Positions 3,073 to 10,241 of a stretch of 10,241 nucleotides of DNA are shown here, piece by piece (positions within the stretch are counted from its first letter, which is position 1; each line of letters starts with the position of its first letter). The notes beneath the pieces were generated by a model. It was not told the DNA's origin. It was given only the letters and a program-made list of their open reading frames with translations, and did not search any database. Position numbers and translations under genes: made by a program. The DNA is taken from positions 1 to 10,241 of the forward strand of contig JBGSIV010000072.1 of the NCBI GenBank assembly GCA_041742355.1. Direction: 5' to 3'. Origin of the DNA: Candidatus Zixiibacteriota bacterium (GTDB taxonomy: Bacteria > Zixibacteria > MSB-5A5 > GN15 > FEB-12).

Positions 3073-3430
3073 CGCTCAGGGAGTGCCTCGACGATGGGAT
3101 CGAGAGTCGAGATCATGGATTCATGTAGTCAATGAAAAGGTTCGGCACCCGGACCGGGTAACCTTAGCGCAAACACTGGACTGACCAGCTGAATTTCTGC
3201 GCAGAAGCGAAAGATTTCCATGCTATCGGCTAACCGGTTCATATACATCAACTTGCATTGATTCGGCTACAGCAAAGAACCGGCCTGAAGAAAATATGTA
3301 AGCACTTACGAAACATGGCCCGATCAGTCTCCGTATCGAACAGTGCGACGTCGCGCGTTACCATCAGCCCAGTACGGGGCTGTGCCCACTGCAGATGAAC
3401 GTCCTGTATTGCACAACCATGGAGGCCGGT

Positions 3431-4954
3431 ATGCCGACGCTTCTCACATCGATAACCACCCGTGGCCGCCTCGCTCGACCACACCCGATCAGCGTGCCCG
3501 CGGTCCTGATACTCACATTCTGCTCAGTCTTGGCACTGTCCGAACTCCCTCAGGCGGCCCATATGCTCACCCCCATCACCCTTCAGAACGCCCCGAACGC
3601 CACGCACCTTGAGACGCTCACCGACCACACCGACCGCGTCTGGACGGTCGCTTTCAGCCCCGATGGCCGCCTCCTCGCCTCCTGCGCCCAGGATGGCCAC
3701 GTCTTTGTCCGCCCGGTCGATTCCCTCAGCGACGCCCGAACCCTCGGTGACTACGCGAACTGGGTCATCGGCCTGGCGTTCAGCCCCGATGGCGCGACAT
3801 TGGTCAACGGACGAACCGAGGGGTTTGGCGGTTCTCTCGGCGATATCGACATCTGGAATGTCGACGGCGATTCTCTCGAACGAACGCTGACCGGACACGG
3901 CAGCGGTATCTGGAGCCTCGATTACCAGGAAAGCACCGGCCTGTTGGCCTCGGGCAGTTTCGACGCCACCGTGCGCATCTGGAACCCCACGACCGGCGCC
4001 CTGATCCATGAATTGACCGGTCACCGCTCCGCCGTGCTGTCCGTCGACTTCAACCCGCATCAGGATCTGCTGGCGTCGTCCGGCACCGATTTCAGCGTCC
4101 GGTTGTGGAATACCATTACCGGAGATTCGGTCCGCGTGCTGAGCGGCCACACCAATAACGTCGGCTATGTAAAATTCAGCCCCGATGGCACCACCATCGC
4201 ATCCTCCGCCGACGATAACACTGTCCGCCTCTGGAATGTCGCCGACGGCTCCCTCGTCTGGTCCAGGTCCTGCGGCCAGGGTTGGGTCAACTGCGTGAAT
4301 TTCAACCCCGACGGCACCCTCATGGTCACGTGCGGACACAACGGCTCCGTCGTCCTGCGCGATGCCGCCACGGGCGCCGAACTGAAGCGCCTCTCCGGTC
4401 ACACCGCCCCGGTTCTCCGTGCGGCGTTCAGTCCCGATGGCACCCTGCTGGCGACCGCCTCCTGGGACAACACCGTCCGCCTCTGGGGCGTCGAGATGGA
4501 CGCCGACGGCGACGCTGTCCCTGATGCCTCCGACAACTGCCCCGGCACGTCCAACCCCGACCAGAGCGACGCCGACCTCGACGGCGTCGGCGACCTCTGC
4601 GACAACTGCACCGATTCCGACAACGACGGCTACGGTGATCCCGGCTATCCGGCTTCCACCTGTGCGACCGACAACTGCCCGTATGCCGCAAACCCCGATC
4701 AGGCCGACGCCAACTCCGACGGCGTCGGGGACATCTGCTGCTGCGTCGTCCGCGGCGACTTCAACCACGACAGCGGGGTCAAAGTCAGCGACCTCACCGC
4801 TATCGTCAGCTACCTCTTCAAATCGGGCCTTCCGACCGGCTGCCCGGGCGAGGGGGATGTCAACAACGACAGCAGCATCAAAGTCAGCGACCTGACCTAC
4901 CTGGTGACGTTTCTGTTCAAGTCCGGCCCGCCGCCCCCGGCCTGCAACGCATGA
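3431..4954 (+). CDS. Secreted WD40 beta-propeller protein (7 blades) with thrombospondin type-3 Ca-binding repeats and a C-terminal dockerin-I-like domain, 507 aa
   Basis: GGAGG at 3421-3425 precedes ATG 3431 (preferred over 3395). Hydrophobic signal ends in ...ELPQAA. Seven GH...FSPDG...D.TVRLW repeats at ~3620-4490. DxDxDxxPDxxDNCPxxxNPDQxDxDxDGVGDxC repeats at 4499-4735. Duplicated GD[FV]NxDSx[VI]KVSDLTxxVxxLFKSG dockerin with Cys residues at 4736-4951. Confidence 0.92.
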   Translation: MPTLLTSITTRGRLARPHPISVPAVLILTFCSVLALSELPQAAHMLTPITLQNAPNATHLETLTDHTDRVWTVAFSPDGRLLASCAQDGHVFVRPVDSLSDARTLGDYANWVIGLAFSPDGATLVNGRTEGFGGSLGDIDIWNVDGDSLERTLTGHGSGIWSLDYQESTGLLASGSFDATVRIWNPTTGALIHELTGHRSAVLSVDFNPHQDLLASSGTDFSVRLWNTITGDSVRVLSGHTNNVGYVKFSPDGTTIASSADDNTVRLWNVADGSLVWSRSCGQGWVNCVNFNPDGTLMVTCGHNGSVVLRDAATGAELKRLSGHTAPVLRAAFSPDGTLLATASWDNTVRLWGVEMDADGDAVPDASDNCPGTSNPDQSDADLDGVGDLCDNCTDSDNDGYGDPGYPASTCATDNCPYAANPDQADANSDGVGDICCCVVRGDFNHDSGVKVSDLTAIVSYLFKSGLPTGCPGEGDVNNDSSIKVSDLTYLVTFLFKSGPPPPACNA

Positions 4955-5115: not shown

Positions 5116-5206
5116 GTACTAATGCGGGCGAAAATGGCAGACTCCCCACAACTCGGCGATGCCAGGTTCGTACTCAAGGGAAATGAACCATTCCAACGGA
5201 GAGATC

Positions 5207-6205
5207 ATGAAGACAACTGGAGCGATCTTGCTTGCCGCGCTGCTCCTCCCATTGGGGGCATGTTGCGAAGATGTCGGGGACCGCGAACCCGTCATCAAAC
5301 CATCCTTCGATGACTCCGCGGCGCGATACGTCCTGCAGAATCCTGCCCGCGCCCTCCAGATCGAGAGAGATTCCATTTGGAGTACTTTCGAAGCCTACAG
5401 AATCACGCTCGTCTGGCACGAGGGATCATCCGTCCCGGTAACCTGGGATATTTGGGAAAGGGGACTCAACCGGTTCCTCCAGGACACCTCCCTGATCACA
5501 AAGTCACTCGCTCTCGCCGATAGCCTCGGCGCCAAAGCCCATAGAGAACATTCAGCTATCGTACATCACCTAACATCCTACCTCGGCGAAAACGTCCCCC
5601 TTGATGCCTCCGTGCATTTCACCGCTTTCACCATCCCCTACGCGTTCTGTGTGGAACGCAACAAGATCGGGATCGACATTACCGGCGATGAATGGCACTT
5701 CGATACCGATTGCATCCTGAATACGGTCATTCACGAAATCTTTCACGTCGGTTTTCGGGCAACCACACCTGACGTGAGAGTTCTCGAAGACGATCCCACC
5801 GATGCAGCGTCCGCGGTGCGCTGCTGCTATGCCATTCTGCAGAACGAAGGCATGGCGACGTATGTCGGCTACACCGCCCTCAATCTCTATCCTTCAGAGT
5901 ACCGCCACGACGATTACCTGCTGCTCGAGGACAGCGCCCGTGTGGCCGACGCGCTAAGTCAGGTGAATGGACTGATTGCCGATGCCGACACCGTCGCTCT
6001 CGATACCCTGCTCCAGAGAATCTGGTATATCGGCGTGAATAAGCGGGCCTTCTACGTCGCCGGGGCCCATATGGCCAGAGTAATTGAAGCGGCCCGCGGG
6101 ACCACACGTTTGGCCGCACTCGTGCGCGAGGGGAGTCTGCCGTTCACCCGCGAATACAACGCCCTCGTGCCCGAGAACCGCAGGATTGTTCTCTCACCCC
6201 GATAA
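5207..6205 (+). CDS. Lipoprotein, putative zinc-dependent gluzincin-type metallopeptidase (DUF5700-like), 332 aa
   Basis: GGAGAG precedes ATG 5207. MKTTGAILLAALLLPLGA-C contains a lipobox. HEIFH (HExxH) at 5732-5746; third-ligand motif LQNEGMATY (Glu at 5846-5848); late FYVAGAHMARVIE helix typical of this group. Confidence 0.85.
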   Translation: MKTTGAILLAALLLPLGACCEDVGDREPVIKPSFDDSAARYVLQNPARALQIERDSIWSTFEAYRITLVWHEGSSVPVTWDIWERGLNRFLQDTSLITKSLALADSLGAKAHREHSAIVHHLTSYLGENVPLDASVHFTAFTIPYAFCVERNKIGIDITGDEWHFDTDCILNTVIHEIFHVGFRATTPDVRVLEDDPTDAASAVRCCYAILQNEGMATYVGYTALNLYPSEYRHDDYLLLEDSARVADALSQVNGLIADADTVALDTLLQRIWYIGVNKRAFYVAGAHMARVIEAARGTTRLAALVREGSLPFTREYNALVPENRRIVLSPR

Positions 6206-6234
6206 TAACGAGGCATCTTAAATGGGAGGGTCCT

Positions 6235-6243
6235 TGCTATATT
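6235..6243 (+). promoter_or_regulatory. Candidate extended -10 promoter (TGcTATATT)
   Basis: Matches TGnTAnnnT, followed by GGAG (6253-6256) and ATG (6263). No good -35 element. Confidence 0.3.
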
Positions 6244-6450
6244 GGTTCATGCGGAGTTAACCATGAGAACCCCGGACAGCGAACTTTGCCGGAAGGTGTC
6301 CGACGCCTCTCTCTGTAACGTCATGCGCCTTGCTCTGACAGCTGTTTCGTTCAACGACTGTCACCACAACCAAGGCTGTGACAAATCTCGGCGAACCCTC
6401 ATCGCTGTTATTGAGAGGAGCGGAGCAGCGATGCAATGTCTCTTCTTCTT

Positions 6451-6477
6451 GTAGGTCAGGACCTTTATGGTCCTGAC
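6451..6477 (+). repeat. REP-like element (GTAG foot plus perfect hairpin)
   Basis: GTAG (6451-6454) is immediately followed by GTCAGGACC (6455-6463), TTTAT and GGTCCTGAC (6469-6477), which is canonical REP geometry. Confidence 0.7.
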
Positions 6478-6823
6478 ATCTTCTCGTCCCGCAAGTCAAC
6501 CACAGCTATGTTATAGATCAGGGTTTCACGGAGCATGTGTCCGAGAAGCAGAAGTTTTCTAGCGCGGAGGGGCGAAAGGTCCACTCTTTTTGCGTCAGAA
6601 GGGACTGTCTCTCCACGAGTCTCCAGGGGCATTGCATCAGCATTCTCGGGAGTATCCCAACTTGAGGAAATCATTTTGTCGAAGTGGAAAAAGGGAACTG
6701 GTATCGGAATATAGCTCAATTTCGCTGTAACTGGGAGGGGGCGTCGATCCGCTGCAAATAAGCTGACAGCACGTTCCGGAGTATGTGCTATCCGAGGCTC
6801 GATCAATATCGATAACAAAGTCC

Positions 6824-6852
6824 TTGACTGGGAGCACAACAGTTGTTATTGA
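6824..6852 (+). promoter_or_regulatory. Candidate sigma70-type promoter for the 2TM/NTPase operon, with a palindrome in the spacer
   Basis: TTGACT (6824-6829), 17 bp, then TATTGA (6847-6852), with TG at 6844-6845. The spacer contains ACAAC-A-GTTGT (6836-6846). Confidence 0.35.
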
Positions 6853-7117
6853 TAAGTGGTGTGTATTTCTGGGCATCGGAGGGTCTATGAGCGCATGCGC
6901 CCACATTAGAGTTGTATAGACAGTCGGGTCAAATGCTCCATTGGATCGGGAGTGGCGACCCACTGCGCCCTACGACGTCCTATTGCTATTCGCCACGCTG
7001 GGGAACAGATTTGCTCTTCAGTCGGCCGGAACCATGGACTTTCTTGTGCCGAGACTTGCTGAGAAGCCTTTGGTCCTGAGATGTGACCTATCGCTGGCTT
7101 CGAACAGAGGACGAGCC

Positions 7118-7699
7118 ATGTCGAAGATAGGAATATTCATGAGTAGTTACCTTGGCCCGAAGTGGGTATTGAGTATGATAATCATCCTCTTGATCACTTT
7201 CTCCCCGAGTATCTTCCTGTGCTTGCTTGGAATCGTGAAGATTGACTGGGCGGACTTAGCGGAGCAATGGACCGTGCTGTGTGGAAATGCCTTCTTTCTT
7301 TATATAGCAGTGAGCATCCTCGCCCGCCGACACGAGAAGGAGGCTAGAATTCTCAGGCGGCTGAGGGTAATCGACTTCAGTCTCTTACCTCCTCTTAAGC
7401 GGACTGAGCAACTTCTCGGTGAGAAGAGCAGTGACCTTCATGCGGCCTTTGAGGAGTGGCGTAAGTTCAAGGAAGCCATGGTTTTCCACGAAAGAAACGA
7501 AGGGGACGCCGAGTTCTTTGCTCGTGAGATAGTGTCCCCCACGCGAAGTAGTCTGGCTGAGATTGACCAAAATCTAGCGGCAATCTGCGCCGTGGGAATC
7601 ATTACTACTCACGATAAACTCACGACCATGAGGCGCGGAATGGTGGCGCTGCGGAGTGCCATCGAGAACGGACGAGAGCGGGCTAGAAGCTACGAATAG
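7118..7699 (+). CDS. Hypothetical membrane protein: two N-terminal TM helices and a charged helical/coiled-coil domain, 193 aa
   Basis: AGAGGA precedes ATG 7118 (more plausible than TTG 6941). TM1 is WVLSMIIILLITFSPSIFLCLLGIV and TM2 is WTVLCGNAFFLYIAVSILA, followed by the basic RRHEKEARILRRLR and amphipathic helices. Confidence 0.75.
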   Translation: MSKIGIFMSSYLGPKWVLSMIIILLITFSPSIFLCLLGIVKIDWADLAEQWTVLCGNAFFLYIAVSILARRHEKEARILRRLRVIDFSLLPPLKRTEQLLGEKSSDLHAAFEEWRKFKEAMVFHERNEGDAEFFAREIVSPTRSSLAEIDQNLAAICAVGIITTHDKLTTMRRGMVALRSAIENGRERARSYE

Positions 7700-7744
7700 C
7701 CGTACAGTCAGCTCTTTAAGCAACGGTGATTGAGGGAGGTGATT

Positions 7745-10072
7745 ATGCGTACAGAACGGACGGGAATCAGGAATTATGTGCATCACAACGCCAAGTACAA
7801 CAGATGCGTTGGAGCACTAGTCAATGACATTTTCCAAAACGAGACGCGGGATCCCTGCCCGTACTTTCAGACCTCTCTCTTGCAGGGTGACGCCGAACCT
7901 GTACCGGCCCCGGCGCCAAACGAGATGATCCCAGTGGCTTCGAAAGACTACGGCCCCACTGAGCATGAGGTGCTCACCAAGCTCGCCTATGGCTCCTTCA
8001 CAAATGTCGTATTGTCGGGCGAGATTGGCTGCGGAAAGACCGAATTGCGGCGATACGTTTTATCTGAACTGGCTTCGCAGGACCTTCACTCCGACTGCAA
8101 ATACTGCCAGATCCGCCCTGATGTACGGCCTCTTGTCATTAACTTCTTGAAAGGATATGATACACAGGACCTCAACGAGGTACTCAAACATCTCTGGGCC
8201 GAAATGTATGATCAGTTATTGCGTGTCCTTTCAGCGGCCTTCGTGGCGAAGGACTTGATTGGCCCGTTTGCCGAAGAAGTGCATCACGGAAAGCTAGCTC
8301 GGCAGCTGACCCGGTTTTGGGAGTTTGTCAATAAGGAAAAGGCAAGGCCCGAGTTTGACGAGAAGCATCCGACTCAGAAGGACAGGAACGAGGCGCTTTT
8401 TGCGTGGATCAATCAGAATCACTCGCGCACCCGCGACGGAGTGGTGTTGTTAGCTTGGGTGGGTCGCTTCGTTCGCGCGCATCTTCCGTGCAAGATGTCT
8501 TGTTTCGTCTCGGCTTTCGACAACTTGGACTATCTACGTACGTCTAATCAGATTCAACTGGTGATAGCGATTGCAAGCATCCAGGAGATCGCGCGGTTTC
8601 GCACTCTCTACGCGGTACGACCAGAACTCGAAGGGAGATTCGATGAGATGGCTGGAGCATCCTTCGTGTTTGACCGAGTCAGGCATTTGGGTACTGATCC
8701 TTCAGTAGTCTGCCAAGCGAGAATGCAAGATTTCTTGGAGTCGAGATGGCCTGATCCACCGCAAGTGAGTTTACATCTCAAGCACACGGTCAGGCCTGGA
8801 ACCACGGTCCTAGAGATTAAGCCATCGGACCACCTCATCGACATATTGCCGGGCGAACGTATTGAGATCCGCGATTCTGAGAGTCTTCAATCCGTTGTAG
8901 TGGAATCAGTCGACGCGGCTGCATCAAGACTCAAGCTCGCGGAGCCGCTGAGATATGACTTCGGGCCTACCGCAACCGTCGTTAGTCGTGGCAGGCACTA
9001 TCGGTCCCTAGTTCATGAAAAATGTATGGCGCACGCGACTGAACTTCGCAGTCACATCGATGTGGTTACTCGCTCGCTGTGCGCCCCCAACGATTTTGTT
9101 TCTCAAACGTTCAAGAACATGTCCTGTCGCAGCATACGACGGTCGCTGAAGTTGGCACAGCGACTATTCGTTAATCATGCCGTAGATTACCTAGTTGGCC
9201 CAGCCAAAATCGCTCATCTCCGTTCGGCACTCATGATTGGCGAGAGTGATACTGGGAACATGGAAGTGAGTGATGATTTGGCGGCAAATCTGTTCGTGGG
9301 ACTTCCGAGCGAGCGCTTCTCGCTTTTGAGCGTCCGGATTCTGCAGTTACTTCTGCACTTTCGTAACACTCAGTCGGCCTGTCCGCTGACTGGTCTGAAG
9401 TGGGATTTGCTCGCCATCAACAGCGGATGGAGTGATGAAGACGTTAGAAACGCCTTGAACTATCTCATGCGTCCCTATGTTCAACTCCTGTATATCCGCG
9501 GGAGGGATAGATACGAGGACGAGAGGGACTATTCCTTGCATTTGGGTGATCATGTTTTTTTGACCGAACTGGGCGAATGGTATTTGACGCGGATGCTGTT
9601 CGACATTCGTTACTTACAGGAGGCGCTCCTCCCCGTCCAATGGAGGACTGAGGACGCAATTCCTACACAAGTGGATTGGTCATTGCAACATGAGAGATTC
9701 CGCCTGTTGGTGAAGCAGCTTCACGTGGTGGTGAGGGAAGACGTAGAAGAGTTCCGAGTATTCCGGGATAACGTTGGACTCGATACGCTACACCGTTACG
9801 GTGCTCACCTTGTCTCCAGCGTTTTCGTGGGGCAGGCTGCGAAAGCGATGCTCAACTCGTTCCCTGACAGAAAGGAGATTGGGACACGCGAGCTGTATCG
9901 AGATTGGGCAAGCTTAGTCAATGTGTGTAATGAGAACGAACGGAATGAGCGGAGAATCTCGAACCCAAAGCTAACAGAACTATTTGATTTGCTCAATGAA
10001 CCGCAGGCCATCCAGGCCGTTCAGTTGGACTCGCCAACTGCACCGAGGGTTGACCAACCGACGCCTGAATGA
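7745..10072 (+). CDS. Large P-loop NTPase (AAA+/STAND- or ORC/CDC6-like) with an inserted beta-domain and a winged-helix-like C-terminal region, 775 aa
   Basis: Perfect SD GGAGGTGAT (7735-7743) precedes ATG 7745. Walker A GEIGCGKT at 8018-8041; Walker B FVSAFDNLD at 8504-8530; sensor-like LYAVRPE; lid/sensor-II-like MSCRSIRRSL; wHTH-like SDEDVRNALNYL...VFLTELGEWYL. Confidence 0.85.
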   Translation: MRTERTGIRNYVHHNAKYNRCVGALVNDIFQNETRDPCPYFQTSLLQGDAEPVPAPAPNEMIPVASKDYGPTEHEVLTKLAYGSFTNVVLSGEIGCGKTELRRYVLSELASQDLHSDCKYCQIRPDVRPLVINFLKGYDTQDLNEVLKHLWAEMYDQLLRVLSAAFVAKDLIGPFAEEVHHGKLARQLTRFWEFVNKEKARPEFDEKHPTQKDRNEALFAWINQNHSRTRDGVVLLAWVGRFVRAHLPCKMSCFVSAFDNLDYLRTSNQIQLVIAIASIQEIARFRTLYAVRPELEGRFDEMAGASFVFDRVRHLGTDPSVVCQARMQDFLESRWPDPPQVSLHLKHTVRPGTTVLEIKPSDHLIDILPGERIEIRDSESLQSVVVESVDAAASRLKLAEPLRYDFGPTATVVSRGRHYRSLVHEKCMAHATELRSHIDVVTRSLCAPNDFVSQTFKNMSCRSIRRSLKLAQRLFVNHAVDYLVGPAKIAHLRSALMIGESDTGNMEVSDDLAANLFVGLPSERFSLLSVRILQLLLHFRNTQSACPLTGLKWDLLAINSGWSDEDVRNALNYLMRPYVQLLYIRGRDRYEDERDYSLHLGDHVFLTELGEWYLTRMLFDIRYLQEALLPVQWRTEDAIPTQVDWSLQHERFRLLVKQLHVVVREDVEEFRVFRDNVGLDTLHRYGAHLVSSVFVGQAAKAMLNSFPDRKEIGTRELYRDWASLVNVCNENERNERRISNPKLTELFDLLNEPQAIQAVQLDSPTAPRVDQPTPE

Positions 10073-10128
10073 GTAACAGTGAGGGTCCGCGGCTGCGCGT
10101 CGGCATTCCAACAAAACGAACCCAAATC

Positions 10129-10166
10129 AAAAGCCGGGCCCCGACCCACAGGTCGAAACCCGGCTT
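10129..10166 (-). terminator. Rho-independent terminator of the minus-strand pruA-like gene
   Basis: Minus-strand RNA AAGCCGGG-UUU-CGACC-UGUG-GGUCG-GGG-CCCGGCUU-UU forms a continuous 16-bp stem only on the minus strand (three U.G pairs), followed by a U-rich tail. Confidence 0.85.
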
Positions 10167-10192
10167 CATGTTCAATCTCACAAACCGGCCAC

Positions 10193-10241
10193 CTACTCCT
10201 TCAGGAACGGGTACCGGTAATCGGTCGGCGGCACCATCGTC
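10193..10241 (-). CDS. pruA: 3' end of probable L-glutamate gamma-semialdehyde (1-pyrroline-5-carboxylate) dehydrogenase, partial
   Basis: The minus strand reads ...TMVPPTDYRYPFLKE-TAG, matching the characteristic PruA C-terminus (...KET[FL]VPPTDYRYPF). Codon usage is host-like and a terminator follows. Only 15 codons are visible. Confidence 0.7.
   Translation of the reverse strand, partial: TMVPPTDYRYPFLKE

Follow-up and report, generated by a model that had tools for sequence, protein, structure and literature searches.

A window of 10,241 nucleotides, which is an entire contig (JBGSIV010000072.1; G000:C72) of a Candidatus Zixiibacteriota bacterium, carries near its right end a compact 3 kb cassette of two genes, one encoding a small protein with two transmembrane helices (2TM; P0002) and the other a large nucleoside triphosphatase (NTPase; P0001). 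By comparing the DNA of ten distinct loci (the window, L039, L040-L046 and the more distant L007; L043 is identical with L006 and was counted once), the NTPase and the 2TM gene were found to be a real conserved cassette, which has been gained and lost as a unit. Defence of some kind is the likely role, and a slightly better than even chance is given to a mobile conflict cassette, likely of the abortive-infection type and directed against phages or other invading DNA, in which the NTPase would be the sensor switch and the 2TM protein the effector acting in trans. If this is true, an effector-less NTPase family with a free-standing membrane protein would be a simple system in which to study how a sensor signals to an executor in trans, and a nuclease-fused sister family built on the same chassis would serve as its matched counterpart. 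Members of the family are rare and stem from uncultured lineages, and its practical reach would therefore be modest unless the mechanism is new.

A co-oriented gene of 193-238 amino acids (aa) with two N-terminal membrane helices was detected directly 5' of the NTPase gene in six of the ten loci (the window, L039, L040, L041, L043 and L045), overlapping the NTPase start in four loci. These six pairs represent five unrelated chromosomal sites, one of which is shared by L040 and L041 (their NTPases being 77% identical). Four of the intact pairs have DNA on their downstream side, and the neighbour there differs each time. A crude rule for such 2TM genes was satisfied by five of the six partners, compared with 3 of the 1314 closely spaced gene pairs of G000 (0.2%). 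In L039, the closest relative with DNA, the gene 5' of the NTPase is a homologue of P0002 (BLASTP E 1e-13, 24% identity over 143 aa), and the LARRH that follows helix 2 of P0002 is matched there by LARKH. A tree of 44 sequences, whose root is uncertain, grouped the window with L039 and put the remaining four pairs in a distant second clade, and the partners of the two clades have a common length and layout. The NTPase of L046 begins at a contig end, and a partner homologue (E 2e-5; 28% identity to the L041 partner) is located at another contig end of the same genome (G287); no overlap connects these ends, a profile search for the missing half gave nothing significant, and the locus was counted as unresolved.

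The two genes also disappear together. G216, a congener of G215, retains the yifB-like and cupin genes that border the site (89% and 83% identity), with other genes between them and no trace of either cassette gene. Among eight relatives of G285 having the upstream nrdG-like gene, one (G961, the L041 locus) contains an intact pair, another (G962) retains NTPase pieces only (residues 322-369 and 596-684), the partner not being found, and six have neither cassette gene in the region fetched. Full-length core members were present in 2 of 285 genomes of the host phylum, in addition to two distant relatives, and 92 other genomes of this phylum gave P-loop region matches only (E 6e-8 or weaker). Scans of sampled genomes (401, 272 and 401) with a 121-sequence alignment added no core member, the first 401 yielding two proteins of the sister family, and no family member was detected in five viral contig scans or in plasmid searches with P0010 and P0108. 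Reading of the translations revealed no integrase or transposase in the fetched flanks of intact pairs. Patchy spread, low guanine-plus-cytosine (GC) content and joint absence or decay count in favour of a mobile conflict cassette.

In the window, 45 base pairs (bp) separate the stop of P0002 (7699) from the ATG of the co-oriented P0001 (7745), upstream of which lies a GGAGG; an in-frame TTG is present at 7730, but the homologue alignments begin at the ATG instead. The cassette block has a GC content of 52.1%, compared with 60.4% for the genome, and values as low occur in 0.8% of genome windows (3 kb, n=1303). Since the contig ends 169 bp past the NTPase stop, a third cassette gene is possible at this locus. 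Promoter and terminator scans gave results at chance level only. The original prediction, made from the letters of this DNA, had described two co-oriented genes 45 bp apart in a compositionally foreign block, two transmembrane helices in the small protein, and about 90 aa before the P-loop of the NTPase with no effector. All of these descriptions hold: both open reading frames (ORFs) lie at the coordinates given below, the GC difference is as above, the helices were recovered by hydropathy, and Walker A begins at residue 92 with no effector family match. The features of the cassette are:

6200-10241, no strand: low-GC block (~52%) carrying the cassette, extending to the contig end (GC analysis).
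7118-7699, + strand: partner gene P0002, 193 aa, with two N-terminal transmembrane helices and a soluble tail of ~120 aa (hydropathy; L039 homologue).
7178-7234, + strand: predicted transmembrane helix 1, residues 21-39 (Kyte-Doolittle mean 2.6).
7268-7324, + strand: predicted transmembrane helix 2, residues 51-69, then LARRH (hydropathy).
7745-10072, + strand: NTPase gene P0001, 775 aa, with a predicted Orc/Cdc6-STAND-like AAA+ fold and without a fused effector (ORF, homologues, model).
8018-8041, + strand: Walker A GEIGCGKT, residues 92-99 (family alignment).
8519-8620, + strand: family signature, with Walker B D259-N260-x-D262, Q269 and R292 (family alignment, nuclease-fused sister proteins).
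8750-8989, + strand: 80-aa insert, residues 336-415, where the alpha/beta core joins the helical lid, present in this copy alone (anchor spacing in the alignment).
9326-9589, + strand: winged-helix-like domain, approximately residues 528-615, with approximate boundaries (model secondary structure; covered by the alignments with TnsC, Avs3 and archaeal ATPases).
9680-9997, + strand: predicted C-terminal helical bundle, approximately residues 646-751 (model).

At E<=1e-3, an exhaustive search of 1.84 billion protein representatives retrieved 186 proteins. The family alignment combines P0001 with those of at least 600 aa among the 150 listed (122 matches; n=123), 28 shorter ones being left out. 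A word-based protein search had given no relatives of P0001 or P0002, which emerged only in the exhaustive one. The ten closest listed matches are singletons at 90% identity with uninformative names, and the ESM Atlas matches of P0001 are unnamed clusters of 630-850 aa, at 0.91. Neither P0001 nor P0002 had a match above cut-off in Pfam, PADLOC, NCBIfam or PHROGs, in agreement with the earlier remark that the pair could not be matched to a named system. Eight residues are invariant in all 123 aligned sequences (G95, G97, K98, D259, N260, D262, Q269 and R292), and the Walker A pattern GxxxxGK[ST] is present in 121 of 123. Walker B reads hhhhDNLD in P0001 and DNxD-x6-Q across the aligned family, the canonical Glu being absent; thus, of the intact Walker A and B motifs claimed previously, the former is confirmed and the latter is invariant but not of the textbook form. 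The Asn at the position of this Glu suggests slow hydrolysis. The number of residues before Walker A has a median of 103 (more than 130 in 4 of 121 members), 108-190 residues follow W633, and a strongly hydrophobic internal segment occurs in 1 of 123 sequences and in none of the other 122. With such short termini and a strongly hydrophobic segment in one sequence only, the family lacks a fused effector, a long repeat sensor and an internal membrane anchor. A Pfam scan of P0001 matched no effector family, and no TPR match was obtained in P0001 or the scanned members, except for a short TPR-end domain in the distant L007. P0001 also contains a CxxC after Walker A (residues 118-121; 8096-8107), and C-x(2-5)-C is found no more than 50 aa past Walker A in 69 of 121 members, often with more cysteines, which could be a metal site that has been partly lost.

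The AlphaFold2 model of P0001 (predicted local distance difference test score (pLDDT) 84.8, predicted template modelling score 0.81) aligns with proteins having an AAA+ core, lid and winged helix, which supports the lid and the winged helix-turn-helix (wHTH)-like C-terminus proposed from the sequence. The highest structural matches were PmcTnsC (9g0f; Z 11.9, root-mean-square deviation (rmsd) 5.9, 286 aligned) and Cdc6 (8s0e_G, a chain of the human OCCM complex; Z 11.9, rmsd 4.5, 227 aligned), and others included NRC2 (Z 10.9), RdrA (10.7), Avs5 (10.0) and Avs3 (9.9), with the Avs3, Avs4 and Avs5 chains spanning 8.9-10.0; BrxC is also among the fold neighbours. In the model, a helical domain and a winged helix come after the P-loop core, and Z to Cdc6, ORC, NLR and TnsC chains is 10-12. 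Foldseek with the same model returned nothing at E<=1e-3 (best row RdrA, E 3.7e-3). The models for NACHT, nSTAND3, nSTAND5 and ORC-CDC6-like proteins all remained below cut-off, a PDB sequence search with P0001 found no match, and a profile search met P-loops only. The predicted fold is best described as Orc/Cdc6-STAND-like, the STAND, Orc/Cdc6 and TnsC branches being near-tied, and the C-terminal helical bundle is a candidate sensor or partner-binding part.

The sister family provides further clues to the role of this chassis. Its representatives (genes L066:5896-8337, L065:1717-4197 and L064:6721-9174) encode unnamed proteins of 803-826 aa, which are annotated in GenBank under names like 'Predicted type IV restriction endonuclease'. 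Their match to the NTPase family starts at Walker A and reaches the C-terminal helices (HHalign 98.7%, E 2.8e-16, 443 columns; family hidden Markov model E 1e-20 to 8e-26), and they keep DNxD-x6-Q and the Arg, as well as the same core, lid and winged helix. About 290 residues precede their P-loop and contain an invariant D...EAK nuclease-like motif, indicating a putative PD-(D/E)xK-type nuclease; Pfam HSDR_N matched one of the three proteins at E 0.044, which is below cut-off and suggestive at most. No 2TM gene was seen upstream of the sister genes at the three loci read, and comparison of the two families suggests that the 2TM protein takes the place of the fused effector. One sister protein matched 27 plasmid records (cultured Proteobacteria), with restriction-type names on two of the 25 listed, and the contexts from this search place the gene beside a methyltransferase and a restriction endonuclease and, twice, among insertion sequences. 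In another context, it follows terminase and capsid-packaging fragments of a phage remnant, which, likened by description only, recalls the P2 hotspot next to the portal gene (PMC9122126). L066 follows a C5 methyltransferase. The sister proteins had no PADLOC match better than E 2e-4, none was present in the phage collection, and four of their accessions were absent from seven supplementary files belonging to the journal version (PMC13581612) of the STAND survey by Lee et al. The fusion to a nuclease and these contexts are the chief grounds for reading the chassis as a conflict device with exchangeable output, and the nuclease-fused family is itself a candidate for a single-gene defence system, and the easier one to test.

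The defence reading draws on the 2TM pairing, joint absence or decay, patchy spread, the nuclease-fused sister, the fold neighbours and the defence genes found near some members, namely AbiEii and type III Res at L044, AlbA_2, YhcG and type III Res at L046, and a type II methyltransferase-restriction endonuclease pair that the G287 partner homologue follows. In the proposed mechanism, the NTPase would be a nucleotide-gated switch that oligomerises upon sensing an invader protein or DNA via its winged helix and C-terminal helices. Its conserved N-terminus of ~100 aa, located where the sister has a nuclease, would engage the 2TM protein through the soluble tail of the latter; clusters of this membrane protein would then damage the inner membrane and arrest the infected cell. 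The 80-aa insert would be a recent addition at a tolerant loop, dispensable for this core mechanism.

Several observations weigh against this proposal. The five intact pairs with long flanks are situated among housekeeping genes rather than in defence islands, the anticipated enrichment in such islands is not supported, and defence neighbours were seen only at loci without an intact pair (L044, L046 and G287). A PADLOC scan of 38 selected neighbours of the window, L040, L041, L043 and L045 (some L041 and L045 neighbours lying outside) gave six matches, all generic (radical SAM, NUDIX, ABC, HNH, FtsK and WD40; translations read) and none indicative of a defence island; one neighbour scanned separately had no match. 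The long TPR or WD40 sensor of tested Avs proteins is absent from the cassette NTPase, with its 108-190 aa after W633, and the top fold matches are near-tied (within ~1 Z) among TnsC, Orc/Cdc6 and NLRs. No homology between the partners of the two clades was detected (HHalign probability 0.6%, E 0.098; no cross-match), which could reflect either fast divergence or separate recruitment. Moreover, L042, L044 and the more distant L007 have an NTPase without an upstream partner; the consistent presence of a 2TM gene before NTPase homologues, which the original prediction proposed to check, is seen in six of ten loci and not in these three. The neighbourhood data cover ten loci, most family clades lying outside them.

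The polarity of the pair might be reversed, an unlikely arrangement that would still be defence, in which the 2TM protein is the sensor (of envelope damage or DNA entry) or an anchor and the NTPase acts, either by forming an Orc/Cdc6- or TnsC-like ring or filament on the DNA that enters or by depleting NTP. DNA-binding TnsC and Cdc6 are indeed the best structural matches (Z 11.9 each), the NTPase C-terminus is short for a protein sensor, and Orc/Cdc6 ATPases in conflict neighbourhoods have been proposed to localise on DNA (PMC10853773). However, the sister chassis bears its own nuclease and so looks like a controller rather than a weapon, and that the NTPase is the only catalytic domain present also counts against the reversal. 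A role outside defence, as a selfish or accessory module (addiction, signalling or membrane-bound regulation) spread by horizontal transfer, is similarly improbable: it would suit the housekeeping surroundings of the intact pairs and the absence of integrases and transposases from their fetched flanks, but not the nuclease-fused sister, the defence neighbours at L044, L046 and G287, or the absence of any conserved target or pathway gene near the cassette. A merely incidental pairing, with an NTPase that acts by itself or together with other, unrelated proteins, is very improbable. Three of ten loci without an upstream partner, one unresolved locus and the lack of significant alignment between the partners of the two clades would fit such a case, whereas the homologous partner (24% identity) that the closest relative with DNA has kept, the gene overlap in four loci, the joint loss and the 0.2% background argue for a genuine association.

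Among the loci without an upstream partner, L042 and L044 are sisters in the tree (support 0.91), and a partner profile search elsewhere in their genomes found none. At L044, a 215-aa single-helix membrane gene with no family match (L044:10047-10694) lies 45 bp 3' of the partner-less NTPase and is possibly a replacement effector. The region L007:539-6604, from a congener of the host, holds a distant member that ends in the TPR-end domain, a convergent HerA gene and, upstream, a weak Cthe_2314-like HEPN gene.

To our knowledge, tested bacterial STAND receptors carry the effector in the same chain. Judged from its two proteins, the cassette appears to match no named system; it would work like an Avs or NLR, a known kind of receptor, but lacks two defining features of Avs (the fused effector and the long sensor), and by the comparisons below it is not RADAR, MADS or iSTAND. 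With Avs and NLR-like STAND NTPases, it has in common an AAA+ core, helical lid, winged helix, helical C-terminus and patchy distribution; the fused N-terminal effector of Avs is absent, a separate 2TM gene being in its place, and the PADLOC Avs models gave no match. The STAND survey of PMC12803255 spans 589 clades, and the cassette NTPase family may therefore sit there unnamed. The Orc/Cdc6 and TnsC ATPases have the highest Z scores for P0001. In conflict neighbourhoods, Orc/Cdc6 ATPases are described (passages of PMC10853773) with restriction endonuclease, HerA/FtsK, triple wHTH and KAP partners, not 2TM, and neither such partners nor a transposase were seen beside intact pairs.

The best Foldseek row, RdrA of RADAR (Z 10.7), was accompanied by no RdrA model match in cassette NTPases and no RdrB deaminase among the scanned neighbours; RADAR has accessory membrane proteins. 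For KAP NTPases (PifA, TmnA and QatA type), which often possess internal transmembrane segments (1 of 123 in the cassette family), the KAP_NTPase model did not match P0001, reached 29.5 against a cut-off of 20 in P0066 over the P-loop stretch only, and remained below it in P0104 and L045. With the MADS mad8 model, weak matches were obtained for 11 of 36 members (best E 3.2e-6) and much stronger ones for HerA and FtsK, and no cluster of other mad genes corresponding to the eight-gene locus was present. The iSTAND ternary systems comprise a catalytically inactive STAND with MoxR and vWA genes (PMC7159879); the Walker A/B residues of the cassette NTPases are instead invariant, and no MoxR-vWA pair was seen in the flanks. 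The SLATT and 2TM effectors of CBASS, Pycsar and retrons have a common layout with P0002, in which two membrane helices and a soluble tail stand by a putative sensor, but no scanned partner had a profile-level Pfam, PADLOC or NCBIfam match above cut-off, and neither a cyclase nor a reverse transcriptase was seen near the cassette. No published account of the pair was found from titles and abstract openings, the subscription literature lying mostly outside this coverage.

The 80-aa insert of P0001 had been overlooked in the original prediction. Between the anchors R326 and H437 there are 112 residues in P0001, 32 in the closest relative and 24-36 in 121 of the 122 others; P0073, with 136, has an insert of ~104 aa and dissimilar sequence at the same junction. 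The frame of the insert is open, its GC content is 54.6% against 52.1% for the rest, and contigs from two samples of a single study, one of them possibly the source of the window, run across it with identical sequence. No homologues were found in the ESM Atlas, its own genome, phages, longer proteins or family libraries, and a search of 285 genomes gave five weak matches, judged as chance. A single-sequence model was backed by one of five runs (pLDDT 69; others ~41) and had no clear structural match (best viral E 0.045; best Z 5.5). A resemblance to the beta-barrel inserts of phage structural proteins found no support in the insert searches and model. The insert may either be neutral or represent a newly integrated domain. 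Plant NLRs have integrated domains, and by analogy the pair could form a split NLR-like receptor, in which the NTPase senses, the membrane protein executes and the recently gained insert serves as bait for a phage protein, but this remains a doubtful, quite speculative idea.

The rest of the window contains several other features. A palindromic, REP-like repeat of ~36 bp (6444-6479), which has dozens of genomic copies, is located close to the left border of the low-GC block. The ~900 bp of low-GC DNA 5' of the partner gene (6206-7117) include short frames only and no convincing gene, with no Pfam match for the short frame at 6465-6839 (- strand), and are possibly a decayed gene. Upstream of this region, 5159-6205 encodes a DUF5700 putative zinc peptidase (E 4.5e-12), with no match for that query in three congeneric genomes, and 3395-4954 a WD40 propeller protein with Cys/Asp-rich repeats and a tail that is presumably dockerin-like. 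The partial gene at 1-2103 encodes Gly-rich repeats and, at the C-terminus, a Peptidase_S74 chaperone domain (E 4e-12), like trimeric fibre proteins, and is followed by a terminator-like hairpin near 2130-2160.

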